DNA of 64,000 bases from NCBI GenBank assembly GCA_903831745.1, contig CAIKYX010000130.1, positions 5,653 through 69,652 of the forward strand, given 5' to 3'. The stretch comes from Oligoflexia bacterium (lineage in GTDB: Bacteria > Bdellovibrionota > UBA1018 > CAIMNF01). The notes under the pieces are model-generated. The model saw only the letters and a list, made by a program, of their open reading frames with translations. It was not told where the DNA came from and did no database searches. Made by a program: the position numbers and the translations under genes. Below are positions 30,711 through 58,629 of this stretch, in pieces (the first letter of the stretch is position 1; the number at the start of each line of letters is the position of its first letter).

Positions 30711-30762
30711 AGAATTAAGAATATTATAGCAAATTTGCCTGATAGTTCACTATACTTTTAGC

Positions 30763-33794: not shown

Positions 33795-33886
33795 TGCTCT
33801 GGCAGCCTTTTGAAAAACATTTTTCCATTGGAATTAAACTATGTTAAGTTGTTTTATTAAGAATCAAGGATAAAAGCGAGGAAATT

Positions 33887-35347: not shown

Positions 35348-35351
35348 AATC

Positions 35352-36677: not shown

Positions 36678-36687
36678 AATTACGTCC

Positions 36688-39373: not shown

Positions 39374-39375
39374 GA

Positions 39376-42182: not shown

Positions 42183-42950
42183 ATGATTCCTGATGAATTC
42201 AGATTAGGGCTGTTTCAATGTGACCTCACCTGGGAAAACACTTCAGCCAACCTCTCCAGACTCGAAGCTCTCGGCCCCGAGTTCGCAGGCACCTGCGACT
42301 TGCTGCTGGTTCCCGAAACCTTTTCAACGGGCTTTACCTCAAAACCTGCCGGACTCGCACTCAATGAGCAAAACGGCGCGCTCGAACGAATCATTCAGGT
42401 GGCTAAAAACCTTAAAACCCACGTAGCAGGATCATTCATCTGGAAACATGAAAACACCTACCGCAATCGCTTTATACTGGTAAACGAACTGGGAATTCAG
42501 GGGCACTACGACAAACATCATCTTTTTGGTCTAGGTCAAGAGACCCAGTTATTTCAAGCCGGAATAGAGAGGACCACTTGGATGGTCGGTGGCTTCAAGA
42601 TTGCCCCGTTTGTTTGTTATGACTTGAGATTTCCAGAATGGTGCGGAAATTCCGAAAAGTGCGATTTGATGATTTTTTGCGCAAATTGGCCCGAGGCCCG
42701 AGTCAGCCATTGGAAGACGTTGCTGAACGCAAGGGCAATCGAGAATCAATGCTACGTTGCAGGCGTGAATCGAATCGGGCGCGACGGAAACCAACTCACC
42801 TATTCGGGCGACAGCCTGGTCATCGATGCGAACGGATCGACGCTTTTGGATTCAGGGGCGACCGAATCACTTAAAATAGTAAAACTATCAAAATCTAACC
42901 TGGCCGCTTACCGCAATAAACTACCGTTTTTGAACGACCGCTTTCAGTAA
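42183..42950 (+). CDS. Carbon-nitrogen hydrolase family (nitrilase/omega-amidase-like)
   Basis: 255 aa. Starts MIPDEFRLGLFQCDLTWEN. The catalytic E-K-C triad context includes ...VCYDLRFPEW (Cys). Confidence 0.78.
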   Translation: MIPDEFRLGLFQCDLTWENTSANLSRLEALGPEFAGTCDLLLVPETFSTGFTSKPAGLALNEQNGALERIIQVAKNLKTHVAGSFIWKHENTYRNRFILVNELGIQGHYDKHHLFGLGQETQLFQAGIERTTWMVGGFKIAPFVCYDLRFPEWCGNSEKCDLMIFCANWPEARVSHWKTLLNARAIENQCYVAGVNRIGRDGNQLTYSGDSLVIDANGSTLLDSGATESLKIVKLSKSNLAAYRNKLPFLNDRFQ

Positions 42951-44896
42951 CCCCAAAGATGCTGAAGACTGACTGCACCTGCTTCAGAACTGGTCACAAT
43001 CTGGGCATTCATGTCTGCATCAGAGGATGAAATACAAACACCACCGAAACCTTCTGGCAAAAATTCGCTCAGCTCCGGAAATACCTCATGCAGCCACAAA
43101 TGATGAACACCAAACGCGGGCACGTTCAGATCTTTTTCAATTTTTAAGCCTTTTGGGCTATAAATCTTAAGTTTATAGCGAGCTTCGCCCGGATAATTTA
43201 ACGAGCCACTTCCGTTTACCAGCGAGATTGCGGTTCTAAAGCCAGAATGATTCAGAACACGTCCGACCACATTCGTATTCGCATTGATCGAACGGGTAGG
43301 ATGAAGCCAGTGTGGAAAATCCTTGAACATGACGCCGACATTTCGCCAACAATTTTGAAACTCGGTAAAATCGCGGTCATGGGTCTTACGATTCCTGATC
43401 ACCAAATCACCCCAGGCCACCCATTTGCGTGGATCCCAATTGGTGTTTGAAAAATCTGGCTCAACCACCATCAGGCGTGCCTCATTCTTTTTAGGAAAGT
43501 CCCTTAGTACCTCTGAACAAAAAATATGTCCTGGTGATTTCTGTTCGTACTTGAGCTCGCCTATCTTGCGGCCCGAACCATCAAATACGTGAACTATAAA
43601 ACGACTCATTCGCGGATTGGCCCACTCGAAAGTAAATCCGTACTCATGTAAATCATTTTCCGGCAAAACCGGTACTGCGTGCGGATAGATCATGTATCCA
43701 GCTGTACGCATTTTTTGCATCCATTCGTTCGACTCACCCGGAGTAAATTCAACCGAATTTTCCTTCAACGCCTGGGATGCCATGTGGTTTCCGAGGAGTA
43801 CTGGCCGCTGAGTATTAAGCCCGCCTTGCGCCTCTTCGAATAAATACCAAAAACAGCATCCATAACCCCTGAAACTCAGGCCTACGTTGGCAAAACCTTC
43901 GGTGGGCTTGCGCTTTTCAAACACGACTTCCTCGAGTGGAACATTCTGATTGCGCTTGACGATCTCAACCCCGTCTACCGTCATTTGGGTTAACGGAATT
44001 TCATGCGATTGCATGTCCATTTCGTAATTCGGAATCGTGGCGACGATTTTACCACTCGTGATCAGACTGGCAGCAACTATCGTCGACTCTTCAGTGGCCG
44101 GACCGTAATCATGCCCGCCATGCAGCGACGTAATTGATCCCTTCCAATGCAAATCAGACCAAACTCGCCAGCGACGATGCCGTTTTCTCGTCAATTGAGG
44201 ATGATGGGTAAACACTTCAAATACCGCAGGCCCCACCCTGACCGGCAAGGCGTCACTTAATCTTAAATGAAAGGTTTCGCCGGGGCTCAGCAGGACTTGA
44301 TTTTCGTATCTCGAACTCCAGTCGCGCACCCTCACGTTTACCAAAACCGGCTCTTTTGCGCCGAAAAATTCGCCATAGTGATTGAACAGATAAAAATCAG
44401 CATCTTCGGCTTCTGTCGGAACCGGAATGGTCGAACCCCCGAACTCAAAATCCGCACCTTCCCACAAAACAGGAATCGATAGATTCTTTTTCTTCAGGAT
44501 TTTTAGAATCGCAGGATAGGCGGTCTTCACATCACGCCCACCGACCAGAATTGCATCGAGCGAAGCAAAGTCCGCTCCGGACAATGGTGTCGCGCCCTTG
44601 AGTACGTCTTCACCCCGAAGCGATATCCATTTCCATTTCGTCGAATCAGGAGCGAGTTCACGAACCGCACCTTGAAAGGCAGAATCGCCGCAAAGCAGAA
44701 TTCGTTGCCAATTCTTATCCGAGATTTTCTTCAGCAAAGGTGCCAGTTCTTGTGTGACCGTTCGCTGATCTTGCGGCACCACATTTCGATTTTTGTATTT
44801 TTCGCGATTGAGAACCATTCGTCCTCGAAACGCTTTTGGATCCGTGGTTAAAAGCTTAGCCGCTGTAGAAAATTTGCGAAAAAGTACCGGTATCAT
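42944..44896 (-). CDS. Large hypothetical protein (650 aa), no confidently recognised domain
   Basis: Long uninterrupted ORF. N-terminal Rossmann-like segment RILLCGDSAFQGAVREL...LDAILVGGRD. Many Trp/His-rich stretches. Translationally coupled (4-nt overlap) to the upstream FkbM-family methyltransferase. Confidence 0.6.
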   Translation of the reverse strand: MIPVLFRKFSTAAKLLTTDPKAFRGRMVLNREKYKNRNVVPQDQRTVTQELAPLLKKISDKNWQRILLCGDSAFQGAVRELAPDSTKWKWISLRGEDVLKGATPLSGADFASLDAILVGGRDVKTAYPAILKILKKKNLSIPVLWEGADFEFGGSTIPVPTEAEDADFYLFNHYGEFFGAKEPVLVNVRVRDWSSRYENQVLLSPGETFHLRLSDALPVRVGPAVFEVFTHHPQLTRKRHRRWRVWSDLHWKGSITSLHGGHDYGPATEESTIVAASLITSGKIVATIPNYEMDMQSHEIPLTQMTVDGVEIVKRNQNVPLEEVVFEKRKPTEGFANVGLSFRGYGCCFWYLFEEAQGGLNTQRPVLLGNHMASQALKENSVEFTPGESNEWMQKMRTAGYMIYPHAVPVLPENDLHEYGFTFEWANPRMSRFIVHVFDGSGRKIGELKYEQKSPGHIFCSEVLRDFPKKNEARLMVVEPDFSNTNWDPRKWVAWGDLVIRNRKTHDRDFTEFQNCWRNVGVMFKDFPHWLHPTRSINANTNVVGRVLNHSGFRTAISLVNGSGSLNYPGEARYKLKIYSPKGLKIEKDLNVPAFGVHHLWLHEVFPELSEFLPEGFGGVCISSSDADMNAQIVTSSEAGAVSLQHLWGY

Positions 44897-45912
44897 AAAT
44901 TAGGCCAACCCCGTTTCATCCAGTAAATGGTCATGTCGTCGTTCATCCGAAGCTTGCGTCTTACTCGTCGCACCAGATTGCCGATTCGATCATCCCGCTC
45001 GCGCAATCGCGGACGCGGGGCAACTGACTTGATGGCTTCGATCATTGCTGCAGATTCGTCTGCGGTAAACAAACCCTGTGCAGTGGCTCGATCCAGCAAC
45101 CAGAACGCAAGATCAAAAAACTGATAGGTACACGCACAAATCAGTGCTTTGGTCAGAAAAGTTTTTGAACGGAATAGGTTTCCGTTTGATGAGCTTCTAA
45201 AATAAAGTGCATCCCCCCCGACCAACTCGGCCCCAAGATGAGCTGTGGCTCTGGCGGTATTCAAATGTCTCCTAATGAAATAGTTTTCGACACCATCCTT
45301 GCAATAATACGATCGCGCCGTTCGAAGATCGAGAAGTTCGAAACCCTTTGAAAGCATGAAAGCATGCACATCACTGAACATCGGTTGACCTTTGTAAATC
45401 TCATGAAACTCGACTTCCGTTTCGACACAAATCACATCATTGAGTTGTTCATCGGTCATAGAAGAAAGGATGTCGAGTTCGGAACCCTGAGTATCAAGTT
45501 TGATCAGATTGGGAGCGCCCTTTTTTTGCTTCTGCAAAAAATCGGCATAGGACGAACACTGAATCTCGACCTGACGCACATTACCCCAATAGTCTGAACT
45601 TCCGAATTTATCGACAAATACAGGATTCGGTGGATAAATCGAAGCACCGGTCGTGCGCATCGGCACATAAAGCGTGCAAGGGCCGGTTTTCTTGGCAAGC
45701 CCGATGGGATGCCATTGAATTTCTGGTCTCGAAATCTTCGACTGACGCTCACATTCCTTCTCATTGGGCTCGAACGCATCGACTTTCATCAACTCGAGGT
45801 AAGGAAACCAGTGTTCGCAAATTCCACCATCGGCTCCGACGTCGGCCGCGAGAACGTTCTCAGAGGCAAGAAACTTGCGTAAAATTGCATTAAATTTCGC
45901 CGATTTTGTCAT
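44893..45912 (-). CDS. FkbM-family SAM-dependent methyltransferase
   Basis: 339 aa. LAADVGADGGICEHWF...VDAFEPNEKECERQ matches the Methyltransf_21 (FkbM) core (DvGAn.G....FEPnp). Confidence 0.72.
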   Translation of the reverse strand: MTKSAKFNAILRKFLASENVLAADVGADGGICEHWFPYLELMKVDAFEPNEKECERQSKISRPEIQWHPIGLAKKTGPCTLYVPMRTTGASIYPPNPVFVDKFGSSDYWGNVRQVEIQCSSYADFLQKQKKGAPNLIKLDTQGSELDILSSMTDEQLNDVICVETEVEFHEIYKGQPMFSDVHAFMLSKGFELLDLRTARSYYCKDGVENYFIRRHLNTARATAHLGAELVGGDALYFRSSSNGNLFRSKTFLTKALICACTYQFFDLAFWLLDRATAQGLFTADESAAMIEAIKSVAPRPRLRERDDRIGNLVRRVRRKLRMNDDMTIYWMKRGWPNL

Positions 45913-46041: not shown

Positions 46042-47112
46042 ATGAGTGAATTTCATTTCAAAGCAGCAGTCTTGGAGAAAACCGGACATCCCCTGAAGAT
46101 GTTCGATCGCATTCCAGTACCCGCGCTCAAACCCGGACAACTCCTCGTCAAAATGGCCTATAGCGGAGTTTGCAGAAGCCAACTGATGGAAGCGCGGGGC
46201 CTTCGAGGCAAAGATCACTACCTTCCCCATCTTTTGGGACACGAAGGCTCAGGAAAAGTCATCGCGGTCGGATCTGAAGTCACCAAAGTCAAACCGGGCG
46301 ATTTCGTGATTCTCGGCTGGATCAAGGGGCTGGGGCTAGAAAGCGGTGGAACCCAATTTCACGTCGATGGTCAGATCATCAATGCAGGCGGCATCACTAC
46401 TTTTTCGGATTACACCGTCATTTCAGAAAATCGCTGCGTAAAAATTCCTGCAGGACTTCCGTTGGATATTGCCGTTTTGTTCGGTTGCGCCCTGCCCACC
46501 GGCGCTGGAATCGTGCTGAACGAAATCGAACTCAAACCCCAAGACACAGTCGTCGTCTGGGGATTAGGAGGAATCGGGCTGAGCGCTTTGATGGCGACCC
46601 AACTTTTTGGTTGCAAGCAAGTGATCGCGGTAGATGTAGAAGATTCGAAACTTGCGCTTGCCCGCGAATTCGGAGCGACCCATACCATCAATTCGACCCA
46701 AGAAAACGCCGTCGAAAAGATCCGCGCACTGACGAACGATCAAGGCGCAGACTACGCCATCGAGGCGTCGGGTTTTGCTAAATCAATCGAACAGGCTTTC
46801 GAGGCAGTAAAAAGAAACGGCGGACTTTGCATTTTTGCATCTCATCCGGCGAATCACGAAAAGATCGAGCTTGATCCTTTCGAGCTAATTTGCGGCAAAC
46901 AAATTCGCGGAAGCTGGGGCGGCGGAGTTAAACCCGATACCGATATTCCACGAATGGCAGAACTCTATCTGAAGGGCAAGTTGCCACTCCAGAAGCTCTT
47001 GTCGAAACCCTATGCGCTGAACGAAATCAATCAGGCGCTCGATGACTTGGAGAACCGAAAAGTCACCCGTGCGATCATCGAAATTGATCCAACCTTAAAG
47101 GCAATCCCATGA
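46042..47112 (+). CDS. Zinc-dependent medium-chain alcohol/polyol dehydrogenase
   Basis: 356 aa. Catalytic-zinc motif GHEGSGKV, structural Cys cluster, Rossmann motif VVWGLGGIGLSAL. Confidence 0.85.
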   Translation: MSEFHFKAAVLEKTGHPLKMFDRIPVPALKPGQLLVKMAYSGVCRSQLMEARGLRGKDHYLPHLLGHEGSGKVIAVGSEVTKVKPGDFVILGWIKGLGLESGGTQFHVDGQIINAGGITTFSDYTVISENRCVKIPAGLPLDIAVLFGCALPTGAGIVLNEIELKPQDTVVVWGLGGIGLSALMATQLFGCKQVIAVDVEDSKLALAREFGATHTINSTQENAVEKIRALTNDQGADYAIEASGFAKSIEQAFEAVKRNGGLCIFASHPANHEKIELDPFELICGKQIRGSWGGGVKPDTDIPRMAELYLKGKLPLQKLLSKPYALNEINQALDDLENRKVTRAIIEIDPTLKAIP

Positions 47113-48614
47113 ACCACTCTTCGAATGAGCTTAGCCCTGAATCTCAGAAAATCATTGCCACCATCCGCGAAACTGCAGGACCTAATCGAAAAATTTCTTT
47201 TGTGTCGGGATACTTTAACGTCCTTCATCCGGGGCATTTGCGCCTGCTTCGCTTTGCCAAAGAATGCGGAGACTTTTTGGTGGTCGGCGTACTCGAGAGC
47301 GGCCCTTACAGTTCGCCACTTCTTTCAGAATCCCTGAGGCTTGAAGGAATTCTTTCTACCAGTTGGGTCGATTTCGGATTCATCCTGAAGGACAATCCCA
47401 AGGAATTTATTCGTGCGCTTCAACCCGCCACTGTTGCCAAAGGAAATGAATTCGCCGACCAGGAAAATGCAGAGCAAGCCATTGTCGAATCTTACGGCGG
47501 AAAGCTTCTTTTCAATTCAGGCGACTTTATTTTTTCATCGATCGATTTTCTCCGTAAAGAATTCAATCGCCTGAAATTTTCAGACATCGAAAAGCCGATG
47601 GATTTTCCGAAACGCCATCAATTCAGCATGCAGCGATTGGCCCAGATCATCGATCTTTTTCCAAATGTCAACGCAACGGTCATCGGTGACTCGATTGTAG
47701 ATGAATACATTACCTGTGATCCGGTAGGCATGTCGCAAGAGGACCCTACCCTGGTGATCACCCCCGTACTGACGGAACGCTTTCTCGGCGCCGCTGGAAT
47801 CGTCGCGGCCCATGCGGTTTCACTTGGCGCAAATATCGATTTCTTCACCGTCACCGGAAATGATGCCGAAGGAAAATACATTCACGAACAAACCGAACGC
47901 TACAAAGTCAAATCACACATTTACGAAGACACGAGCCGTCCTACCACACTCAAGCAACGCTTTCGGGCTACCGGCAAGACCCTGCTTAGAGTGAACCGCT
48001 TTAGGCAGCACGAGATCAATACCAAACTACAGGAAGTCATTTTCAAAGACTTGGTCAAGAACCTGGCCGACAAGCAGCTTCTGATTTTTTCTGATTTTAA
48101 CTATGGTTGCCTGCCTCAAACCCTGATTGAAAAGCTGATCACCCATTGCAAGAAAAACAATATCAAGATGGTGGCCGACAGCCAGTCTTCATCACAAGTG
48201 GGCAACGTGGCCCGTTTTCATGATATGGACCTGATCACGCCGACCGAGCGTGAAGCCCGCCTGGCAGTTCAGGACTTTCGATCAGGCATCGTCATGATGG
48301 CGCGCGAACTGCAAAAAGCGTCGAATGCCAAGAACATTTTTGTAACCATGGGTAAGGAAGGCGTCATGATTCACGCCGATGTTTCGGGCGAGAACCAATG
48401 GCTGACCGACCAATTACCCTCGATGAACTCGGCACCCGTAGATGTTTCTGGAGCGGGCGACTCGCTTTTCATTTGCTCATCTCTGGCTCTGGCCGCCGGT
48501 GCCAACATCTGGGAAAGTGCTTATTTGGGTTCTCTTGCAGCCGCAAGTCAGGTAGGAAGACTCGGAAACATTCCACTGACCAAGCAAGAACTCTTAAAGG
48601 ACACTCTCAATTGA
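47109..48614 (+). CDS. Bifunctional sugar kinase / nucleotidyltransferase, HldE (RfaE)-like with inverted domain order (cytidylyltransferase-like domain N-terminal, PfkB kinase C-terminal)
   Basis: 501 aa. N-terminal ISFVSGYFNVLHPGHLRLLRFAKECGDFLVVGV is the HxGH nucleotidyltransferase domain, similar to HldE domain II. C-terminal VIGDSIVDEYI...GAAGIVAAHAVSLGA...DVSGAGDSLF is a ribokinase/PfkB domain, similar to HldE domain I. ATGA overlap with the upstream ADH. Confidence 0.8.
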   Translation: MNHSSNELSPESQKIIATIRETAGPNRKISFVSGYFNVLHPGHLRLLRFAKECGDFLVVGVLESGPYSSPLLSESLRLEGILSTSWVDFGFILKDNPKEFIRALQPATVAKGNEFADQENAEQAIVESYGGKLLFNSGDFIFSSIDFLRKEFNRLKFSDIEKPMDFPKRHQFSMQRLAQIIDLFPNVNATVIGDSIVDEYITCDPVGMSQEDPTLVITPVLTERFLGAAGIVAAHAVSLGANIDFFTVTGNDAEGKYIHEQTERYKVKSHIYEDTSRPTTLKQRFRATGKTLLRVNRFRQHEINTKLQEVIFKDLVKNLADKQLLIFSDFNYGCLPQTLIEKLITHCKKNNIKMVADSQSSSQVGNVARFHDMDLITPTEREARLAVQDFRSGIVMMARELQKASNAKNIFVTMGKEGVMIHADVSGENQWLTDQLPSMNSAPVDVSGAGDSLFICSSLALAAGANIWESAYLGSLAAASQVGRLGNIPLTKQELLKDTLN

Positions 48615-49306
48615 AAGCCCTCTTGCTTGCAGCCGGTCTCGGCACGCGCCTTCGCCCACTCACCCTCACCACACCCAAATGCCTGGTTCCCATTGCAGGC
48701 AAACCCCTTCTCGAATATTGGCTCGAAAAACTCGAATCAGAAAACATCGACACACTGATCAACACCCACTATATGAGCGAACTGGTGATTGAGTACCTAA
48801 AGGGGCATCCTCATCGAAATCGAATCGAAACCGTATCGGAAACAATCTTACTGGGTACCGGCGGAACCCTGTTAAAGAACCGAAAGTTCTTCGCAAATGA
48901 TTCGATCTTACTTGTTCATGCCGACAATCTTTCGCGCTTTTCTTTGCCGGCCTTTCAGAAGGCGCATGCCGAACGCCCGAGCGGTTGCGTAATGACCATG
49001 ATGACGTTTGAATCTCCGGCTCCAGAAACCTGCGGAATTCTCGAGTTAGATTCGCGCGGTGTCGTGACTCGCATGCACGAAAAAGTAAAAAATCCACCCG
49101 GAAATCTGGCCAACGCTGCGGTTTATATTCTCGAGCCCTCCATCATGGCGCATTTGGAAAGCTTGGGCCGCGACGTCATTGATTTCAGCACGGAGGTCAT
49201 TCCACATTTTCTGGGTAAGATCGCCACTTTTGCCAATACCGATTATCACCGCGACATCGGGTCGATCGAGAGTTACGAGAAAGCGAACCTCGATTTTAAG
49301 ACTTAA
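48611..49306 (+). CDS. Sugar-1-phosphate nucleotidyltransferase (HddC/GMP-like, GlmU-fold)
   Basis: About 231 aa. TTG start overlaps the upstream stop (TTGA). [36 protein letters not shown] is the G-x-G-T-R-L NTP-transferase motif. Confidence 0.78.
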   Translation: [231 protein letters not shown]

Positions 49307-50162
49307 AGTATTCCTCGATCACTTCGTCGAGTGACTGAAACTTCAATCCCAATTCCTGCTGCGCCTTTTGATTACTCAGCGTACTGTTCACTGGGCGAAT
49401 TTCGCGCCCAGTAATATCGCGCGACTCACTTTCGTGAATGACCGTGCTCGAGCCTAATTTGTTCTTGATCGCTCGCCCGATTTCGAACCAGGTATATCCA
49501 GCATTCATAGCGAGATGAAACGTACCATTGAGTTTGCATAATAAAACCGCCTCGACCGCACTGGCCACGTCTTTTGCCGACACCGGAGTGAGTTTTCGAT
49601 CACTGGTCAGCGTGAGTTCGATACCTGCTTTCAGTTTTCGGCTCAGATCTGAAATCGGATTCTTTGCATGGTCGGAAGACGACAAAATCCGCGCGGTTCT
49701 GAAGACCACACCATTTGAAAAATTCTCGGTGATCCATGTTTCGAGCTCGACCTTGTGTTGACCATAAACCATTGAAGGCTTTGGAGTTTCGCTTTCTACA
49801 GAAAAAGCATTTACCCCTGAAAACACGTTATTACTTGAAAAAAGAACCGGTTTTATACCTGAATTCACCAAGGGAAGGAGTAACTTTTGGTATCCCAAGA
49901 AATTGATCTGTCTCGACTTCATTGGATCCTTCAAGCACAGATCGACATCGGTCATTGCGGCCACCAGCAGTAGCACTTCAATTTGGTTTTTTTGGATGTA
50001 AGCTCGTAAAGAATCCGGATTTGGATTCTCAAGATCAATACCATCGGCCCGGTTCATTACCTGAACTTCATGCCGAAGAGCAAGAAGCCTCGAGAGTTCA
50101 GTTCCTAAAAACCCTGTGCCTCCGAGAATCAGAACCTTGGGGTTTTGAACCTCATTGCTCAT
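49296..50162 (-). CDS. NAD(P)-dependent sugar reductase/epimerase, RmlD-like SDR
   Basis: 288 aa. KVLILGGTGFLGTELSRLL glycine-rich motif. YGQHKVELE (YxxxK). Size and architecture like dTDP-4-dehydrorhamnose reductase. Confidence 0.72.
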   Translation of the reverse strand: MSNEVQNPKVLILGGTGFLGTELSRLLALRHEVQVMNRADGIDLENPNPDSLRAYIQKNQIEVLLLVAAMTDVDLCLKDPMKSRQINFLGYQKLLLPLVNSGIKPVLFSSNNVFSGVNAFSVESETPKPSMVYGQHKVELETWITENFSNGVVFRTARILSSSDHAKNPISDLSRKLKAGIELTLTSDRKLTPVSAKDVASAVEAVLLCKLNGTFHLAMNAGYTWFEIGRAIKNKLGSSTVIHESESRDITGREIRPVNSTLSNQKAQQELGLKFQSLDEVIEEYFKS

Positions 50163-50950
50163 GAGGCTGGCTTTTGCTTGGTTGAACGTCGGGTAAAAAT
50201 AATGCCCCGAATTCTTCGAATCAAAATCTGAAGCACGCTATGGCTCACGGAAAGGACGTTGATCATCCGAAATGCTTTTGAGATTCCACTTTCTCGATCC
50301 AGGTTCTTGATCTCGACTTCGACGTAGGTTGCACCTTCTTCAAGAAGCCGCGTCAGCACTTCGGCTTGATAGGCAAAACCATAGGTATCCGAATGCCAGC
50401 GAATAATATTAATACGTCGGTGCAAGACCGGGCCATTGTAATAAGAAATATGATTTCCGGTGATCGTGTTGATCAACCAGGTAAAAAACTGAGACAATCG
50501 CACTCTCGACATCGCACGACTGTCTTGCGATCCAAAATGCGGAATAACCATGTCCGCTTTGCCTTTTTGAGCCAAGATCGCTTCGATGGCTTCTTGAGGT
50601 TCGGCATTATCGCCATTGACGAGCATAATGAATTCGCCCGAAGCCAAATACGCAGCGTCGACATAGTTACGGCCCAGGCCACGATTCGTTGTATTGATGA
50701 TCAAATCGATTCGCACATGGGGATGGCCCTGCTTGTACGCCTTGATCTTAGAAATTGTCTGATCCTTTGATCCATCATCCACAATTAGAATCTGATAGGT
50801 GTAGGTAAATTTCGAAACTGCGGCATGAATATTCTCGATCGTGGGAACAATGTTTTTTTCTTCATCCATGCACGGAACAAAGAAAGTGACATCACAATCG
50901 GACTTGATTTCAAATGTTAACTCGCTTCCGAGCCCTCGATTTACATACAT
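50159..50950 (-). CDS. GT2 polyprenyl-phosphate glycosyltransferase (DPM1/ArnC-like)
   Basis: 263 aa. ILIVDDGSKDQT ... LVNGDNAEPQEAI ... (DxD). C-terminal basic tail. 4-nt overlap with the RmlD-like gene. Confidence 0.8.
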   Translation of the reverse strand: MYVNRGLGSELTFEIKSDCDVTFFVPCMDEEKNIVPTIENIHAAVSKFTYTYQILIVDDGSKDQTISKIKAYKQGHPHVRIDLIINTTNRGLGRNYVDAAYLASGEFIMLVNGDNAEPQEAIEAILAQKGKADMVIPHFGSQDSRAMSRVRLSQFFTWLINTITGNHISYYNGPVLHRRINIIRWHSDTYGFAYQAEVLTRLLEEGATYVEVEIKNLDRESGISKAFRMINVLSVSHSVLQILIRRIRGIIFTRRSTKQKPAS

Positions 50951-50955
50951 GTGTT

Positions 50956-51444
50956 TTACCCCGTTCGATCCAAATTATAAAAATGCTGAAAAAAGATCAA
51001 GATCTTCGCTAAACCGCCGGCCTTTGAGGTACACCGAAGCGATCCATCCGGTGCACGGGTCAGCCAATTTCCCTGCACTAACCAGTCTACTCGGCTGATA
51101 AACATCGAGTCAGGCGAATACGTGTGAAGAATCTGCTCGATCGTCAGTTCTTGATTCTCGCTCTGCCTGATTTCTTCCAGAATGCGGATCGAAACCGAAC
51201 GCTCCATCCCCACATAGAGATGAAAATACATGATGATGAACAAGGCATAGACGGCAATTCCAAGCGAAGTGACCAGAGCACCCTGGATAAGAAATCCAGC
51301 ACCAAATCCGAGAATCGCAAGCAAGATCAACAACTTCAGAGATGCTAGTGCTTTTAAATAACGCCAAATTACGAGATGCGCTCCCAGAAAAATCAGGAGG
51401 CTAAAAAGTGGAAACTTCAAATCCTGAAGCAGTTCGCAATTCAT
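50956..51444 (-). CDS. Membrane-anchored protein with C-terminal winged-helix-like domain (paralog 1)
   Basis: 162 aa. Two or three N-terminal TM helices, then SIRILEEIRQSENQELTIEQILHTY...ISRVDWLVQGNWLT...DGSLRCTSKAGGLAKI (MarR/winged-helix-like pattern). Confidence 0.5.
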   Translation of the reverse strand: MNCELLQDLKFPLFSLLIFLGAHLVIWRYLKALASLKLLILLAILGFGAGFLIQGALVTSLGIAVYALFIIMYFHLYVGMERSVSIRILEEIRQSENQELTIEQILHTYSPDSMFISRVDWLVQGNWLTRAPDGSLRCTSKAGGLAKILIFFQHFYNLDRTG

Positions 51445-51923
51445 CCTCCAGCTCCCATGCGAAGCATGGTTTTATAGCTTCGGCTCAGAAAGACGATCGC
51501 TTTAGAACGGGTAAAATCAGCCCGCAAGCGATTCTGATTCATAGTAAGTAAACCAGAGGCAGCCATTCCTTCGATTCGTTTTTTCAGGAGTCCAGTAGGA
51601 CCCATGCCATTTCCGTATTGAACCATCAACTCTGAAACCGTAATCGGCTGACGTTCATGCACGAGCTTGATGATGTGAAATGAAAACCCACGACAGATCA
51701 TCGAGAAAAACTCGAGATAAAATAAAAACACCGCAATATTAGTTACCAGGGCCGTGAGGAGTTCTTTTGAGTTCAGACAAAAAACCACCGCGCAGGCAAT
51801 GGTAAAAACGAGTGACCCAACCCACGAAAACACCATGGCTTTTGCGAAGCCATTTTTGAGGATGCGAAGAAGGATCACATGAGTCAGCATCAAAATGAGA
51901 CCGGACGTGATTCCTATGATCAT
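51441..51923 (-). CDS. Membrane-anchored protein with C-terminal winged-helix-like domain (paralog 2)
   Basis: 160 aa. Same architecture as 50956..51444 (SFHIIKLVHERQPITVSELMVQYGNGMGPTGLLKKRIEGMAASGLLTM). 4-nt overlaps with both neighbours. Confidence 0.5.
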   Translation of the reverse strand: MIIGITSGLILMLTHVILLRILKNGFAKAMVFSWVGSLVFTIACAVVFCLNSKELLTALVTNIAVFLFYLEFFSMICRGFSFHIIKLVHERQPITVSELMVQYGNGMGPTGLLKKRIEGMAASGLLTMNQNRLRADFTRSKAIVFLSRSYKTMLRMGAGG

Positions 51924-52523
51924 CTAGTAGGTGCTCGCTGGCCCTTTGTTTTCGATATAACTGCGAAGGTACTGGCTGCTGAGATGCGAAAACATCAGTT
52001 GTGCATCTTCGACCGAGCCGTAATTGTGGGATTTGAAATGAAAGTTCACATCGGCAACTTCCTTGAGTTTGCCACCAGAAAACCCTACGAGAGCGATGGT
52101 TTTTCCGCCGTGCTTGCGGGTGAATTGCGCTGCCTGAACCACGTTTTCGGAATTACCTGAAGCGGAGATGGCAATCAAGACCGAGTCGGGTTCCCATAAG
52201 CTTTTCAATTGCTCAACAAAAACAGTTTGATAGCCACAATCATTTCCGTACGCAGTCAGCGTGCTCATGTTGTCAGCAAGTCCTACGACTTTGAGGCGTA
52301 ATTTGCCATCTACGACAGTGCCTTTGATCAGGTCATTGACCATGTGATTACTGGTGCCGGCAGAACCACCATTTCCGCAAATAAAAACAGGTCGTCGAGC
52401 CAGATAGGCATCGATGAGAATTTTCGTCGCTTCAGCGAAAGCGGGCCCCTGATATTCGTTGAAGAGCGGGAGTGTCTGGTTTAAGTATTGCGCGACAAAA
52501 GCGTCAGTTTGCTCCATGGACAA
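51924..52523 (-). CDS. gmhA: Phosphoheptose (sedoheptulose-7-phosphate) isomerase, SIS domain
   Basis: 199 aa. RPVFICGNGGSAGTSNHMVNDL and LIAISASGNSENVVQAAQFTRKHGGKTIALVGFSGG are classic GmhA motifs. Confidence 0.85.
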   Translation of the reverse strand: MSMEQTDAFVAQYLNQTLPLFNEYQGPAFAEATKILIDAYLARRPVFICGNGGSAGTSNHMVNDLIKGTVVDGKLRLKVVGLADNMSTLTAYGNDCGYQTVFVEQLKSLWEPDSVLIAISASGNSENVVQAAQFTRKHGGKTIALVGFSGGKLKEVADVNFHFKSHNYGSVEDAQLMFSHLSSQYLRSYIENKGPASTY

Positions 52524-52579: not shown

Positions 52580-53758
52580 ATGTCAAGAACCATGAATAAA
52601 TCTGCACCGGTTAACCATAATTTTTTGCCTGAGCAATATCGTTCGACCGGCCAAGCCGGAATCAATCACAATTACCTACACTCACAGTTTTCTGATTATC
52701 CTGAGATTTTCAAAAGACTCGAATCCTTGATTATTCAAGGCGATTTTACATTAGGAAAAGCGGTTGATGAATTCGAGGCCCGTGTTGCCAAAATTTCCCA
52801 AACCGAATTCGCCATCGGCGTGGGCAGCGGAACCGATGCGTTATTTTTAAGTTTGAAGGCACTGGGCATTGGTCCGGGTGACGAAGTCATCACCACCCCC
52901 TACACCTTTTTCGCGACAATCGGAGCGATTGTCACCGCTGGCGCCCGTCCCGTGTTTGCAGACATCGGAGATGATTTTAATATCGATCCCAAAAACATCG
53001 AGAAAGTCATCACGTCAAAAACCAAAGCCATTCTTCCGGTTCATTGGGCCGGTCTGATTTGCGACATGAATGCAATTCAATCAATCGCCAAAGCCAACAA
53101 ACTTTCGATTGTCGAAGACGCCTGTCATGCAATTCAAGCAACCTATCAAGGACGTCCTTCGGGCTCACTGAGTGACGCCGGTTGCTTCTCGATGCATCCG
53201 CTTAAGAATCTGAATGTATGGGGAGACGGCGGCTTCATCACCACGAATTCTCGCGAGCTTCATGACCGATTGGTTCTGCTTCGCAATCACGGACTTCTGA
53301 ATCGCGATCAATGCGCGGTGTTCGCTTACAATTCGAGACTCGATACCCTGCAGGCGATCGTGGCAAATTTTTTGCTCGAGAAGAAACTCGATAACATTAC
53401 CCAAAAGCGGATCGAGAATGCGGCCAATTACGATGCCCTTCTCGCTGATTGCCCAGGCATTCGCATTCCGGCAAGACCATCCGATCGAAAACAAGTCTAT
53501 CACCTGTACATCGTTCGAGCTGAACGTCGCGATGACTTGGTTACTTTTCTGAATGCCAATGGAGTTGATGCAAAAGTCCATTACCCGATTCCGATGCACC
53601 TTCAACCTGCCGCTCTCGAATACGGTTATCACGTGGGCGATTTTCCGGTGGCCGAACGCACCTGCAATGAAGTGATCTCGCTTCCGGTACATGAGTTCAT
53701 TACCCGCGACAACTGTGAACACGTGGCCAAAAAGATCAGAGAGTTTTACCAACGATGA
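52580..53758 (+). CDS. DegT/DnrJ/EryC1/StrS-family sugar aminotransferase (copy 1)
   Basis: 392 aa. AIGVGSGTDALFLSLKALGIGPGDEVITTPYTF ... CFSMHPLKNLNVWGDGG (PLP-Lys). Confidence 0.85.
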   Translation: MSRTMNKSAPVNHNFLPEQYRSTGQAGINHNYLHSQFSDYPEIFKRLESLIIQGDFTLGKAVDEFEARVAKISQTEFAIGVGSGTDALFLSLKALGIGPGDEVITTPYTFFATIGAIVTAGARPVFADIGDDFNIDPKNIEKVITSKTKAILPVHWAGLICDMNAIQSIAKANKLSIVEDACHAIQATYQGRPSGSLSDAGCFSMHPLKNLNVWGDGGFITTNSRELHDRLVLLRNHGLLNRDQCAVFAYNSRLDTLQAIVANFLLEKKLDNITQKRIENAANYDALLADCPGIRIPARPSDRKQVYHLYIVRAERRDDLVTFLNANGVDAKVHYPIPMHLQPAALEYGYHVGDFPVAERTCNEVISLPVHEFITRDNCEHVAKKIREFYQR

Positions 53759-54861
53759 ATTCAATACGCGTCCCTTTCGTCAATCTGGGTCTTCAATATC
53801 AAGGCATGCGAGATCAAATCATCGCCGAAATCGATCGCATTTCGCTTGCCGGACAATACATTCAGTCGCCTGATGTCGAGAAATTTGAAAAAGGCTTTGC
53901 TCACTATTGCGGAACCCAAGACGCAGTGGCAGTGGGTAACGGTGGCGACGCCCTTTATTTTTCACTGCTGGCGATCGACGTAGGGCCCGGAGATGAAGTC
54001 ATTGTTCCCGCAAATTCATTTGTGGCGTCTGCCTGGGCAGTGGCAGGTTGCGGGGCCAAAGTTGTTTTTGTAGATGTCACTTCGGATTACAATATCGATC
54101 CTGCTTTGGTCAAAAAGGCGATCACGCCAAAAACCAAAGCAATCATGCCGGTGCACCTGACCGGTCGCCCGGCACCCATGAATGAAATTCTCGAAATTGC
54201 CAAGCAACATGGCCTGCACGTTATTGAAGACGCCGCTCAAGCCGTAGGCGCCACCTACTACGGAAAAAAAACAGGCTCGATGGGCACTACCGGTTGTTTC
54301 AGCCTGCATCCCCTTAAAAATCTTCATGTTCTGGGCGATGGTGGAATTATCTCGCTGAACGATACGAAGCTTGCATCAAAAATCAGACTCTGGAGAAATC
54401 ACGGCCTTAAGAATCGTGATGAATGTGTGTTCTGGGGCAGAAATTCGAGACTCGACAGCATTCAGGCGGCGATTGCCAATCTCAAGCTCCCTCTGCTCGA
54501 TCAATGGAATGACCGCTTTCGGGCGATTGCAGGGCGCTACTCACAAGAACTCGGTGAGTTCGTCAGCGTGCCCGTGGATCGACCGTACGAGCACAGCGTG
54601 TTTCATCGCTACATCATCACGACCGAAAAACGCGATTCACTTCAAAACTTTTTAACCGAGCGCGGAGTCGAAACCAAGGTAAACTACCCTATTCCTTTGC
54701 ACTTGCAAGAAGCAGCCGGGCCTTATCCTGTCGGCTCTTTTCCGGTTGCAGAAAAGCTCGCAAAAACCATTTTGAGCCTGCCCGTCTATGCAGAGATGCA
54801 GGATTCACAAATTGATATTGTCATCGAAGAAGTAAAACAATTTTTTAGAAAGAAGATCTAG
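53755..54861 (+). CDS. DegT-family sugar aminotransferase (copy 2, tandem paralog)
   Basis: 368 aa. MNSIRVPFVNLGLQYQGMRDQI ... CFSLHPLKNLHVLGDGG. ATGA overlap with copy 1. Confidence 0.88.
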   Translation: MNSIRVPFVNLGLQYQGMRDQIIAEIDRISLAGQYIQSPDVEKFEKGFAHYCGTQDAVAVGNGGDALYFSLLAIDVGPGDEVIVPANSFVASAWAVAGCGAKVVFVDVTSDYNIDPALVKKAITPKTKAIMPVHLTGRPAPMNEILEIAKQHGLHVIEDAAQAVGATYYGKKTGSMGTTGCFSLHPLKNLHVLGDGGIISLNDTKLASKIRLWRNHGLKNRDECVFWGRNSRLDSIQAAIANLKLPLLDQWNDRFRAIAGRYSQELGEFVSVPVDRPYEHSVFHRYIITTEKRDSLQNFLTERGVETKVNYPIPLHLQEAAGPYPVGSFPVAEKLAKTILSLPVYAEMQDSQIDIVIEEVKQFFRKKI

Positions 54862-54864
54862 ATC

Positions 54865-55905
54865 ATGGCGTCTCAGAAGATATTGGTTACCGGTGGTTTT
54901 GGTTACGTAGGCAGCAGACTGACTCCGCTTTTGCTCGAACAAGGACATGATGTTCGCGTACTCGATTTGAATCTGTACGGCGACGACGGCTTACAGGCTC
55001 TCGAAAAACATCCTCAATATCAGAATTTTAAATCACGTTTTCAATTCATCCGTGGCGATATCCGCCATCCGGAAGTGGTAGAAAAGGCGCTTGCCGGACG
55101 AGAAGCCGTCATTCACCTGGCCGCCATCTCGAATGATCCCACCGGCGAAATCGACGAAACCCTGACCCGCCAGGTTAACTTCGATGCAGTTGGATTGCTT
55201 TTGGCCAAAGCCAAGAGCGCGGGCATCAAACGTTTTATCAGCGCGTCTTCGAGCAGCGTTTTTGGAATCAAGAATGAAGAGAATGTGACCGAGGATCTCG
55301 AACCAGAACCGATCACTTCTTATTCAAAATACAAAATGCTTTCTGAATGGTTAGTACTCTCGGCTTCGTCACCAGAATTCACGACCGTGAGCATTCGCCC
55401 GGCTACCATTTGTGGCTATTCGCCCAGACAGCGTTTCGATCTGACGGTAAACAAGCTGACAGCCGATGGAGTCACTAAGAAAAAGATCACTGTCCATGGC
55501 GGCCAGCAACGTCGCCCGAATCTCGGCATGACCGACATGATCAACCTGTATTGCCATTTGCTTGATGTTCCATCAGCGCTCATCAACGGACGCACTTTTA
55601 ACTTTGGCTTCGAAAACATGAAGGTCATCGAGATTGCAAACGAGATTCAAAAGCAATTGTCCGACCTGAACGCCGAAATCGTGGTCACGGACACAACCGA
55701 TCGCCGCGATTATCATATTTCTTCAAGCAAGATCCTGCGCGAACTGAAATATGAACCCATCAGCTCAGTTCGCCGAGAAGTTCAGGAACTGAAGAAAATG
55801 CTGCTCTCGGGTGCTTTTTCGGATATCGAAGATGCACGTCACTACAACATGAAATCAATGAATATCAAGCGCGACAAATCGCCTTATTCATTCTTATCAA
55901 AATAA
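54865..55905 (+). CDS. NAD-dependent sugar epimerase/dehydratase (extended SDR)
   Basis: 346 aa. KILVTGGFGYVGSRL, YSKYKMLSE (YxxxK). Confidence 0.85.
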   Translation: MASQKILVTGGFGYVGSRLTPLLLEQGHDVRVLDLNLYGDDGLQALEKHPQYQNFKSRFQFIRGDIRHPEVVEKALAGREAVIHLAAISNDPTGEIDETLTRQVNFDAVGLLLAKAKSAGIKRFISASSSSVFGIKNEENVTEDLEPEPITSYSKYKMLSEWLVLSASSPEFTTVSIRPATICGYSPRQRFDLTVNKLTADGVTKKKITVHGGQQRRPNLGMTDMINLYCHLLDVPSALINGRTFNFGFENMKVIEIANEIQKQLSDLNAEIVVTDTTDRRDYHISSSKILRELKYEPISSVRREVQELKKMLLSGAFSDIEDARHYNMKSMNIKRDKSPYSFLSK

Positions 55906-55920
55906 GAATCGGGGGATTCC

Positions 55921-56580
55921 ATGCAACAAGAAATTGATTTGATGAAAAACTATCCCCGCACGAAGCGCGATCCTATGGCCCGTGCGGCTGAAAAAACCGA
56001 AGCAGACCGAAACATTGCCCGCCAGTTCGGCCGCGAGTTTTTTGATGGAGACCGAAAGACCGGTTACGGCGGATTCAGTTATCAATCGCGTTTCTGGCAG
56101 CCCGTCATTCCGGACTTTGTAAAGCACTTCGACCTGACGTCCGCATCTTCGGTGTTGGATGTGGGCTGCGCCAAAGGCTTCATGCTGTTTGATTTTATGC
56201 AGCTCGTGCCAGGCATCACGGTCGCCGGAATCGACATTTCTTCGTATGCGATCGAAAACGCGGTCGAAGCGGTCAAACCCTTTGTAAAAGTTGCGGATGC
56301 GCGAAAACTTCCGTTTGCCGACAAATCATTCGATGTGGTCATTTCGATTACTACGGTTCATAATTTTGATCGCGCCGAGCTCATTCAGTCGCTTCAAGAA
56401 ATCGAACGGGTGCAAAGAAAAGGATCCTTCATCACCATCGATGCTTACCGCACCGAAGACGAGAAGAAGATGATGGATGCCTGGAACCTCACTGCAAAAA
56501 CCGTTCTGCACGTCGACGAATGGAAGAAGCTCTTTAAAGAAGCCGGATTCACCGGAGATTATTATTGGTTCATGCCATGA
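55921..56580 (+). CDS. Class I SAM-dependent methyltransferase
   Basis: 219 aa. VLDVGCAKGFMLFDF (motif I), FDVVISITTVHNF (motif II/III region). Confidence 0.8.
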   Translation: MQQEIDLMKNYPRTKRDPMARAAEKTEADRNIARQFGREFFDGDRKTGYGGFSYQSRFWQPVIPDFVKHFDLTSASSVLDVGCAKGFMLFDFMQLVPGITVAGIDISSYAIENAVEAVKPFVKVADARKLPFADKSFDVVISITTVHNFDRAELIQSLQEIERVQRKGSFITIDAYRTEDEKKMMDAWNLTAKTVLHVDEWKKLFKEAGFTGDYYWFMP

Positions 56581-57572
56581 ACACACTTCAATCTAAGGAA
56601 ATGTACGAGAAGTTGTTCCTGATCCGAGAGGCCGAGCAAGCGATTGCCCGTGTTTATCCGGAAGGCGAAATTCGTTGCCCAACCCACTTAAGTATCGGCC
56701 AAGAAGCGGTTCCTGCCGCTATGGGGCTTGCGACCACTTCACAAGATCTGGCAGTCAGCACGCACCGATGTCATGCCCATTACTTAGGTAAGGGCGGATC
56801 GCTTCGTGGAATGTTCGCGGAACTCTACGGCAAGGTGACGGGTTGCACTCGGGGCCGCGGAGGCTCGATGCACCTGATGGATGAATCGGTTGGTTTCATG
56901 GGCAGTACCGCCATTGTCGCCAACAGTATTCCTGTAGGAGTAGGTCTGGCGCTTTCGATGCAACTCAAGAAGCAAAAGAACGTCAGCCTCATTTTTTTCG
57001 GAGACGGCGCAACCGAAGAAGGCGCATTTTATGAAGCTGCCAACTTTGCGGCCCTTCGTAAACTTCCTGCCTTGTTTCTCTGCGAAAATAATCTTTATTC
57101 TGTTTATTCCTCACTGAAGCCAAGACAACCCGAAGGTCGAAAGATTGTAGAAGTGGCCAAGGCCATAGGCCTTCACACCGAAATCGCCAACGGAAATGAT
57201 GCCGAAGAATGTTTTCGCGTCATCTCTGAGGCGAAGCAAAGAGCGATCAATGGCGAAGGCGCCCAATTCATCGAATTTTTTACTTATCGTTGGCTCGAGC
57301 ACTGTGGACCGTTCATCGATCAACACCTCAAGTACCGCGCAGACGATGAATTCGCAAAATGGAAGGCGATGGATCCCGTCGCCAGCTTCCGCGAGAAAAT
57401 GCTGAAGAATGGTACGCTGACTGAATCCCAAATGATGGGTATCGAAAAGAACGTTCTCGACTCGATTGCGGATGCCATTACTTTTTCAAAGGAATCGCCC
57501 TATCCGGAAGCAAGCGAAGCTTTTGGGCCCATCTACAAGGAACGTAACCATTCGGCGGGAGCTTCGAAATGA
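56577..57572 (+). CDS. Thiamine-diphosphate-dependent dehydrogenase E1 alpha-like subunit
   Basis: About 331 aa. ThDP-binding GDG...N motif region GGSMHLMD...IFFGDGATEEGAFYEAANFAAL...FLCENNLYS. ATGA overlap with the methyltransferase. Confidence 0.85.
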   Translation: MNTLQSKEMYEKLFLIREAEQAIARVYPEGEIRCPTHLSIGQEAVPAAMGLATTSQDLAVSTHRCHAHYLGKGGSLRGMFAELYGKVTGCTRGRGGSMHLMDESVGFMGSTAIVANSIPVGVGLALSMQLKKQKNVSLIFFGDGATEEGAFYEAANFAALRKLPALFLCENNLYSVYSSLKPRQPEGRKIVEVAKAIGLHTEIANGNDAEECFRVISEAKQRAINGEGAQFIEFFTYRWLEHCGPFIDQHLKYRADDEFAKWKAMDPVASFREKMLKNGTLTESQMMGIEKNVLDSIADAITFSKESPYPEASEAFGPIYKERNHSAGASK

Positions 57573-58627: not shown

Positions 58628-58629
58628 CC

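Follow-up and report, generated by a model that had tools for sequence, protein, structure and literature searches.

A widespread nucleotidyltransferase-kinase fusion with HldE-like domains in reversed order, and its partner nucleotidyltransferase, in a surface-glycan island of an Oligoflexia bacterium

The stretch of DNA analysed here, referred to as the window, is 64,000 nucleotides of contig CAIKYX010000130.1 from an Oligoflexia bacterium. At 47109-48614 it encodes a protein of 501 amino acids (aa), called FUS in what follows, in which a nucleotidyltransferase is fused to a kinase, and directly after it a second nucleotidyltransferase of 231 aa, called NTPtr. The two genes stand among others for an alcohol dehydrogenase, a sugar-phosphate isomerase, aminotransferases, sugar-nucleotide dehydratases and reductases, methyltransferases, a thiamine diphosphate (ThDP)-dependent enzyme and a glycosyltransferase (Table 1), and this cassette lies in a large glycan island beside genes of the pseudaminic/legionaminic type. 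All of the open reading frames (ORFs) listed in an earlier reading of the sequence, the initial annotation, were found at the same positions.

Two Pfam domains are present in FUS, CTP_transf_like (PF01467) at residues 33-118 and PfkB (PF00294) at residues 206-488, and the NCBIfam models place rfaE_dom_II (TIGR02199) at residues 22-134 with 59.5 bits and rfaE_dom_I (TIGR02198) at residues 184-497 with 186.9 bits. The layout is that of an HldC-like HxGH nucleotidyltransferase (residues ~28-145), a linker with two short helices (~146-184) and an HldA-like PfkB kinase (~185-500). Given that the nucleotidyltransferase precedes the kinase, the domain order is the reverse of that of HldE, as the initial annotation had stated. 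The motifs quoted there, YFNVLHPGH at residues 35-43 (HPGH at 40-43) and DVSGAGDSLF at 445-454, are both found, and H40, G42, H43, D445, G448, G450 and D451 are unchanged across 60 homologues. A loss of kinase activity, which had been raised as one possible objection, is not indicated: the GAGD catalytic Asp and the anion hole are retained, and judged by motif both domains are catalytically intact.

The kinase domain clearly belongs to the HldA clade and not to the PFK or ribokinase clades: its TIGR02198 score compares with 51 bits or less for the ribokinase and PFK models of NCBIfam, the best PDB sequence matches of FUS are HldA 4e84 of B. cenocepacia (71 bits) and HldC 5x9q (29 bits), and in a Foldseek search with the AF2 model (pLDDT 86.4) HldA is the best match, at an E-value of 5e-27 against ~1e-18 for ribokinases. 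As the kinase domain swamps such a whole-model search, which is uninformative on the N-terminal domain, the latter was compared by a family-profile sequence search. A profile of 15 FUS-family sequences matched HldC of B. pseudomallei best among the PDB entries, with 53 bits over the full domain, followed by ECT (46.8 bits, as the sum of two domains), TagD (34-36 bits) and the cytidylyltransferase domain of Fom1 (34.8 bits). The NCBIfam models agree, with the TIGR02199 score standing against 20.9 bits over 30 residues for the TagD model TIGR01518, so that the closer match to TagD than to HldE that the initial annotation had allowed for is not observed. That annotation is therefore right in part: judged by its domains and motifs, the protein resembles HldE with the domains reversed and looks active.

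The gene for NTPtr begins within that for FUS, the stop codon of FUS overlapping a TTG start (TTGA, 48611-48614), and the product read from the TTG is identical to a publicly called protein. The overlap had been described in the initial annotation, which named the protein HddC-like; this name holds only loosely, given 94-110 bits for the archaeal-GlmU, ManC and long-RmlA models against 70.3 bits for HddC (NF049965, cut-off 300), and HddC structures align with NTPtr over its full length at ~71 bits. The window proteins were compared by tblastn with 86 related loci, 52 of them full-length, taken with flanks of 10 kb. NTPtr was found in 51 of the 52 full-length loci, at a median identity of 54%, and the pair in 81 of the 86, co-oriented in all 81 and with NTPtr directly downstream of FUS in 69. 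NTPtr is an obligate partner of FUS. No gene fusion of FUS with NTPtr, of NTPtr with HAD or of SIS with FUS was found when the best 120 homologues of NTPtr and the best 150 distant representatives of FUS were screened; apparent fusions of 474-539 aa in the ORF calls appear to be alternate-frame artefacts.

The initial annotation implied that the reversed architecture is rare, and this is not supported. More than 7,500 homologues of FUS were returned by a search of 5.8 billion proteins; thousands of them, from many phyla and at 52-60% identity, share its domain order. In each of the best 120, at 53-74% identity, PF01467 precedes PF00294. A FUS relative is present in at least ~590 loci when one genome is taken per GTDB species. 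Among 50%-identity representatives the best 150 matches are nearly all single and collinear over both domains, at 33-52% identity, with about a dozen that are shorter and cover part of the protein. The homologues come from Nitrospirota, Thermodesulfobacteriota, Omnitrophota, Chloroflexota, Leptospira, Pseudomonadota and others, under generic names such as 'PfkB family carbohydrate kinase', 'adenylyltransferase/cytidyltransferase family protein' and 'ADP-heptose synthase'; cultured carriers include Herbaspirillum, Rhodopseudomonas, Polaromonas, Viridibacterium and Leptospira ilyithenensis, and the family is also seen in metagenome-assembled genomes (MAGs) assigned, subject to binning error, to Chloroflexota, Patescibacteria and Saccharibacteria. 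FUS is thus an ordinary member of a very large, horizontally mobile and biochemically uncharacterised family and is not peculiar to this genome.

Beyond NTPtr, the neighbours of FUS vary from locus to locus. In the 52 full-length loci tblastn found the Zn-dependent alcohol dehydrogenase (Zn-ADH) in 32, the epimerase/dehydratases in ~28, the methyltransferase MT219 in 29, the E1 alpha/beta pair in 17-18 and the SIS isomerase in 17, and given the 10-kb flanks all such counts of neighbours, that of SIS included, are underestimates. Clustering of the ORFs gave a recurrent order FUS-NTPtr-SIS-Epi/Deh-Epi/Deh-(DegT-DegT)-TktN-TktC-HAD-APH kinase-MT219-ZnADH, in which Epi/Deh stands for an epimerase/dehydratase and TktN-TktC for a split transketolase. 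A variant cassette carries E1 alpha/beta and/or an acetolactate synthase-like (ALS-like) ThDP enzyme, a short-chain dehydrogenase/reductase (SDR) and an FkbM methyltransferase, and a ThDP-free variant carries an RmlD-like reductase, methyltransferases and a TIGR04372 glycosyltransferase. The window has the E1-type gene set, at 44.9-62.7 kb, with the E1 alpha/beta pair in place of the transketolase and without the HAD and APH-kinase genes. Among 48 full species-representative loci a ThDP enzyme lies within 10 kb of FUS in 65%, and FkbM-family genes (PF05050) are near FUS in 9. In about a quarter of the loci HAD and APH-type kinase genes are next to each other, and an unrelated-looking HAD gene occurs in ~21% of them. 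Split transketolase, HAD hydrolase, APH-type kinase, MT219 and Zn-ADH form a block of five genes in, for example, L018, L024, L027, L029, L041, L051 and L069; the HAD and APH proteins of this block gave no NCBIfam match. Homologues of the LhgO-like FAD oxidoreductase adjoin FUS in several loci, B12-radical-SAM genes do so in some, a NUDIX gene is found in L004, and many loci encode Wzx-like flippases and glycosyltransferases.

The position of Zn-ADH deserves attention, given that the initial annotation had named it as part of an alternative, CDP-polyol pathway. The stop codon of its gene overlaps the start of FUS (ATGA, 47109-47112), an arrangement for translational coupling, and it lies directly upstream of FUS in 24 of the 47 loci that contain it. 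Nevertheless, about half of all loci lack it, and in several others the gene directly upstream is the RmlD-like reductase. Its occurrence follows the ThDP enzymes instead, which are present in 20 of 23 loci with Zn-ADH and in 11 of 25 without it (Fisher p 0.0025), much as they are present in 22 of 25 loci with MT219 and in 9 of 23 without it (Fisher p 0.0007), both tests ignoring relatedness. This co-occurrence indicates that Zn-ADH probably belongs to the ThDP branch module, as the reductase of a 'C2-attach then reduce' sequence; a functional link between Zn-ADH and FUS is not supported.

The surface structure that the cassette serves appears to differ between organisms. In R. palustris HaA2, the named Rhodopseudomonas source strain with FUS, the cassette (L087, CP000250 4332480-4353964) lies between two genes for flagellins of ~886 aa with a DUF1522 insert, and comprises FkbM, SIS, two SDRs, MT219, E1 alpha/beta, Zn-ADH, FUS, NTPtr, a further SDR, an ALS-like ThDP enzyme and, at its downstream end, a TPR-GT41 transferase followed by flbT/flaF. 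Five further Rhodopseudomonas loci (L057, L060, L068, L074, L086) are arranged alike, and in this genus the cassette has the look of a flagellin-glycosylation island not yet characterised. A search for flagellin genes that covered all related loci and the window found them in these six Rhodopseudomonas loci only, so that a general link between FUS and flagellin is unsupported; given the flippases and glycosyltransferases at many loci, the cassette appears to feed differing surface glycoconjugates. The flagellin island, together with the MAGs of phyla that are not expected to make lipopolysaccharide (LPS), argues that FUS is an accessory enzyme, and it does not look like a housekeeping supply of ADP-heptose for the LPS core.

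Table 1. Features of the window: positions, strands and the matches on which the assignments rest.
Feature	Length (aa)	Position	Strand	Basis
GT9 'WaaF-like' protein		11167-12213	-	113.5 bits against heptosyltransferase II cut-off of 134.6
FkbM-family methyltransferase	339	44893-45912	-	PF05050
Zn-dependent medium-chain dehydrogenase/reductase (MDR) alcohol dehydrogenase (Zn-ADH)	356	46042-47112	+	ADH_N, ADH_zinc_N
FUS, nucleotidyltransferase-kinase fusion	501	47109-48614	+	Pfam, NCBIfam, PDB search, Foldseek, AF2 model
NTPtr, sugar-1-phosphate nucleotidyltransferase	231	48611-49306	+	PF00483, 105.7 bits
RmlD-like NDP-4-keto-sugar reductase	288	49296-50162	-	PF04321, 137.7 bits; TIGR01214, 127 bits (cut-off 224)
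Soluble GT2 glycosyltransferase, ArnC/GtrB-like catalytic domain	263	50159-50950	-	PF00535, 69 bits
Two small membrane proteins	162 and 160	50956-51923	-	2-3 transmembrane segments and soluble C-terminal part; no family match
GmhA-like SIS sugar-phosphate isomerase	199	51924-52523	-	SIS_2, 64 bits
Two DegT-family sugar aminotransferases	392 and 368	52580-54861	+	PF01041, 358 and 354 bits; PseC/WecE-like, below cut-offs
SDR sugar epimerase/reductase	346	54865-55905	+	PF01370, 119.7 bits
Class I S-adenosylmethionine (SAM) methyltransferase MT219		55921-56580	+	Conserved cassette member
E1 alpha/beta pair, ThDP-dependent two-carbon transfer enzyme		56565-58627	+	PF00676, 212.7 bits; PF02779, PF02780
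NDP-sugar 4,6-dehydratase-like SDR	339	58606-59625	+	PF16363, 147 bits; TIGR01181, 191.7 bits (cut-off 365)
Polytopic membrane protein	661	59625-61610	+	~11 transmembrane segments; no Pfam/NCBIfam match
FAD oxidoreductase, LhgO/GlpO-like	366	61601-62701	+	PF01266, 230.7 bits

The placing of Zn-ADH ahead of FUS, and of the RmlD-like reductase and the GT2 protein on the opposite strand, agrees with the initial annotation. Zn-ADH is class III ADH-like (177 bits to human ADH5) and, in a reading of the translation by eye, keeps the catalytic Cys44/His67/Cys ligands and is missing the four-Cys structural-zinc loop. The GT2 protein has no transmembrane segments and is 30% identical to the GT2 of Leptospira FUS loci. 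Small membrane-protein genes of similar size (171-182 aa) are present in the Leptospira loci L001 and L032, the likeness in architecture being judged by eye; these Leptospira gene pairs adjoin a gene for an LPG_synthase_TM protein. The E1 alpha/beta proteins are like pyruvate dehydrogenase E1 alpha/beta, below the cut-offs, and E1 beta and E1 alpha are 63% and 49% identical, respectively, to copies in other FUS loci. The 661-aa polytopic protein is a possible candidate for a membrane glycosyltransferase or polymerase. Next to the FkbM methyltransferase gene, at 42944-44896 on the reverse strand, is one for a soluble protein of 650 aa with no Pfam or NCBIfam match.

The gene set of the nonulosonic-acid (pseudaminic/legionaminic) type that adjoins the module extends from 29649 to 40386 and encodes NeuB-like, PseB-like (Polysacc_synt_2), DegT/PseC-like, CTP_transf_3, aldo-keto reductase, class III aminotransferase and Capsule_synth-like proteins, together with a 681-aa protein that has a C-terminal GNAT domain. 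The GT9 gene is further off, 35 kb from FUS among lipid A genes, and is followed by one for a DUF3108 protein. Its product, named 'WaaF-like' in the initial annotation, scores under the heptosyltransferase II cut-off, and its donor sugar is therefore not certain. A single ORF of 695 aa at 13190-15277 on the reverse strand matches LpxB at residues 6-370 (154.9 bits) and LpxK from residue ~386/410 (113.6 bits); from these matches it looks like a fusion of lipid-A disaccharide synthase and 4'-kinase, and it lies in an lpxA-fabZ-lpxD-skp-bamA cluster. A scan for promoters and terminators performed no better than on shuffled sequence, and base composition gave no obvious island boundary.

Taken together, it is suggested, with a probability of about one half, that FUS and NTPtr form a mobile front end by which a heptose-like sugar is activated on its way into a tailored accessory surface glycan. 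Heptose-type chemistry is a reasonable lead given that, among solved structures, the isomerase is closest to GmhA, the kinase domain to HldA and the N-terminal domain to HldC. In the window the GmhA-like isomerase would convert a ketose phosphate, most simply sedoheptulose-7-phosphate, to the aldose phosphate, the PfkB domain would phosphorylate the anomeric hydroxyl (O-1), and the sugar phosphate would then be nucleotidylated. The resulting NDP-sugar would be tailored by the 4,6-dehydratase, the two aminotransferases, E1 alpha/beta with Zn-ADH, the methyltransferases and the RmlD-like reductase, with the E1 alpha/beta carboligase attaching a C2 unit that Zn-ADH then reduces, as in YerE/YerF, and a deoxy, amino, C-branched and methylated product would pass to the GT2 protein and the membrane proteins for assembly of a surface glycoconjugate. 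Inferred here are the substrate (heptose-7-phosphate or another, related higher sugar phosphate), its anomer and the nucleotide, as well as how the two nucleotidyltransferases share the work and which acceptor finally receives the sugar.

A number of observations weigh against the proposal that FUS and NTPtr activate a heptose-like sugar. Both domains of FUS score below the model cut-offs (186.9 against 345 bits for TIGR02198 and 59.5 against 181.5 bits for TIGR02199). Heptose nucleotidyltransferases (HENases) carry a C-terminal (F/L)XXGXSTT, which is (F/L)XXGRSTT in promiscuous enzymes (Tang et al. 2024), and the FUS family has in its place the consensus F-S-S-G-D-x-x-F-S-S-[ILV]-D (G-[DE]-x-x-F-S-S-[ILV]-D), in which the 'RSTT' of HldC aligns to F142-S143-S144-I145 of FUS and an invariant Phe takes the position of the promiscuity-determining Arg. 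The kinase, too, has motifs specific to the family (a GMSQEDPT lid, FNYGCLPQ, ADSQSSSQ and TPTEREAR). On sequence grounds FUS is HldE-like but stands outside HldE proper by both cut-offs, by domain order and by the HENase signature.

The isomerase raises a similar difficulty. The initial annotation had called its gene gmhA, and GmhA structures are indeed the best PDB matches of the protein (82 bits); nevertheless, it reaches only 99-102 bits with the GmhA models (TIGR00441 / NF010546), whose cut-offs are 209-276, and alignment with P. aeruginosa GmhA places an Asp at the position of the catalytic Glu, the C-terminal His being retained. Glu/Asp also replaces the Gln/Glu of the C-terminal 'IQE' motif. 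The same Asp is found in the SIS homologue of another FUS locus, L063, and the Asp-for-Glu exchange may point to a different ketose phosphate as substrate. A SIS gene lies within 10 kb in only ~25% of the related loci, itself an underestimate. No HAD/GmhB-type phosphatase is found among the scanned window ORFs of at least 150 aa, as the initial annotation had also noted; given that gmhB is unlinked to hldE and gmhA in E. coli, this absence is uninformative. A literature search (reversed HldE, PfkB/cytidylyltransferase fusions, heptose/transketolase clusters) found no paper characterising the FUS family. Finally, the product expected of an HldA-type kinase is a beta-1-phosphate, while RmlA/HddC-type nucleotidyltransferases and RmlB-type dehydratases use alpha-linked sugars, so that a single linear pathway does not obviously need both nucleotidyltransferases.

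This last point raises the possibility that two independent sugars are made, SIS and FUS (with an unlinked GmhB) leading to an ADP- or CDP/UDP-heptose, possibly for the GT9 protein, and NTPtr activating a hexose-1-phosphate for tailoring. The two nucleotidyltransferases do resemble enzymes of differing anomer preference (HldC-type against RmlA/ManC-type), NTPtr scores higher with the ManC, RmlA and GlmU-N models than with that of HddC, the RmlB-like dehydratase and the DegT enzymes are classical partners of RmlA-type enzymes, and a GT9 gene is present in the window. This scenario is unlikely, given that independent routes should uncouple and FUS and NTPtr remain co-oriented and mostly adjacent, in the 81 of 86 loci and across many phyla, while the rest varies, and given the accessory nature of the cassettes, whether in the Rhodopseudomonas flagellin island or in the MAGs of Chloroflexota, Patescibacteria and Saccharibacteria. 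That accessory context, the distance of the GT9 gene and its place among lipid A genes, and its score below the WaaF cut-off make it unlikely that FUS feeds the GT9 protein with ADP-heptose, and the initial view that FUS does so while NTPtr independently makes another sugar is not upheld. A product of a different kind, in which an NDP-linked open-chain or distal-phosphate-linked sugar is reduced to an NDP-alditol by Zn-ADH or the RmlD-like enzyme for a phosphodiester-linked decoration (TarI/TarJ- or CDP-6-glucitol-like), would fit the coupling of Zn-ADH to FUS here, its frequent place directly upstream elsewhere and that of the RmlD-like reductase in several other loci. Members of the HxGH family such as TagD, ECT/CCT and the Fom1 cytidylyltransferase domain have primary phosphate esters as their substrates; the C. 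jejuni conversion of CDP-6-fructose to CDP-6-glucitol is a precedent for nucleotidylation of a distal phosphate followed by reduction; and the nucleotidyltransferase-then-kinase layout is that of RibF and NadR, where the product of the kinase is the substrate of the transferase. However, the N-terminal domain is nearer to HldC than to TagD, the kinase is of the HldA clade, Zn-ADH is missing from about half of the loci and tracks the ThDP enzymes and not FUS, known CDP-alditol systems use IspD-type transferases with SDR or other-family reductases, and the universal partner NTPtr is left unexplained, all of which renders an alditol product distinctly improbable.

Both nucleotidyltransferases could instead act at two stages of one pathway. 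One of them would activate the sugar for tailoring and, after its release or its extension by the ThDP enzyme, the fused kinase and nucleotidyltransferase would phosphorylate the finished higher-carbon sugar afresh and activate it with a second, different nucleotide; or else a temporary nucleotide handle would be placed on the distal phosphate by the HxGH domain. Such a scheme would account for the joint inheritance of one kinase with two nucleotidyltransferases, and it is consistent with the ThDP C2-transfer enzymes in 65% of loci, with the HAD phosphatase and APH-type kinase genes paired in about a quarter, a pairing that follows the sugar-salvage logic of MupP/AmgK/MurU, with the NUDIX gene of L004 and with the B12-radical-SAM genes by FUS in some loci, as in Fom1/Fom3, the Fom1 domain being a detectable relative of the N-terminal domain. 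Precedents are the nonulosonic-acid and lincosamide-octose pathways, in which nucleotides are switched and an isomerase/kinase/phosphatase/nucleotidyltransferase logic is applied to chain-extended sugars. On the other side, the scheme is wholly inferential, the HAD and APH genes are missing from the window, where no hydrolase that would release an intermediate was identified, and some 35% of loci have no ThDP enzyme within 10 kb. It is doubtful that FUS and NTPtr constitute an unrecognised, widespread route that takes one sugar through two nucleotide-linked states, by a switch after ThDP extension or branching or by a transient distal handle; if they did, the route would lead to branched higher-carbon sugars of a new class, used on flagellins and in other surface glycans across hundreds of species.

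The activation of a heptose-like sugar by FUS and NTPtr is accordingly the preferred reading, and the interest of the system lies in the family and not in this window, whose gene is itself ordinary, one more copy within a large surface-glycan island. NDP-heptoses are building blocks of LPS and are also recognised by ALPK1 as agonists of innate immunity. In the published classification, heptose nucleotidyltransferases fall into monodomain, kinase/nucleotidyltransferase and isomerase/kinase/nucleotidyltransferase types; the nucleotidyltransferase/kinase form is not in this catalogue, and the FUS family occurs in at least ~590 species-representative genomes. It is thus a well-defined target in the search for new sugar nucleotides, rare surface sugars and possibly flagellin glycans.

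Among known systems, FUS is closest to HldE and to the Burkholderia pair HldA and HldC, with which it shares both domain types and the HxGH and GAGD motifs; a GmhA-like isomerase is encoded near FUS in the window. HldE has its kinase N-terminal and its transferase C-terminal, the opposite of FUS, which scores far under the equivalog cut-offs. FUS differs further in its family-specific kinase motifs, in its constant RmlA-type nucleotidyltransferase partner and in its occurrence in accessory cassettes instead of LPS core loci, and where HENases have an STT motif the FUS family has SS[ILV], preceded by Phe in place of the promiscuity Arg. The Fom1 cytidylyltransferase domain, TagD and ECT/CCT share the HxGH fold of the N-terminal domain at 34-47 bits, all below HldC, and their substrates are primary phosphate or phosphonate esters and not glycosyl phosphates; Fom1 nevertheless shows that a cytidylyltransferase can be joined to another enzyme of its pathway and supply a transient CMP handle. 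With the CDP-6-D-glucitol pathway of C. jejuni HS:5 there is a shared concept, a nucleotidyltransferase and a reductase leading to an NDP-alditol. There the transferase is of the IspD family (PF01128), the reductase is an SDR (PF01370) and a kinase is missing, and given the difference in enzyme families it was set aside as a model for FUS.

The route of the HddA/HddC type likewise has its isomerase, kinase, RmlA-fold nucleotidyltransferase, 4,6-dehydratase and reductase, each with a counterpart in the window. HddA is a GHMP-type kinase, whereas the kinase of the window is of PfkB type; NTPtr gives 70 bits with the HddC model against a cut-off of 300, GmhB is lacking, and there is the extra HxGH transferase domain. 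In the lincosamide octose route (LmbR/LmbN/LmbP/LmbK/LmbO) chain extension is followed by an isomerase, a 1-kinase, a phosphatase and a nucleotidyltransferase to give an NDP higher-carbon sugar, and FUS cassettes often combine a split transketolase or E1 pair with a SIS isomerase; the lincosamide enzymes are of other families (transaldolase, GHMP kinase), and the likeness is one of logic. C4-branched higher sugars related to the products of YerE/YerF, such as caryophyllose, erwiniose and the O-antigen sugar of R. palustris CGA009, are known; sugars of this kind do occur in Rhodopseudomonas, and FUS cassettes are as yet linked to no solved glycan structure. In the synthesis of yersiniose by YerE/YerF the 'attach C2 then reduce' logic is established, and a ThDP enzyme and a reductase that worked in this way on a 4-keto sugar nucleotide would explain why E1 alpha/beta or the ALS-like enzyme is found together with Zn-ADH.

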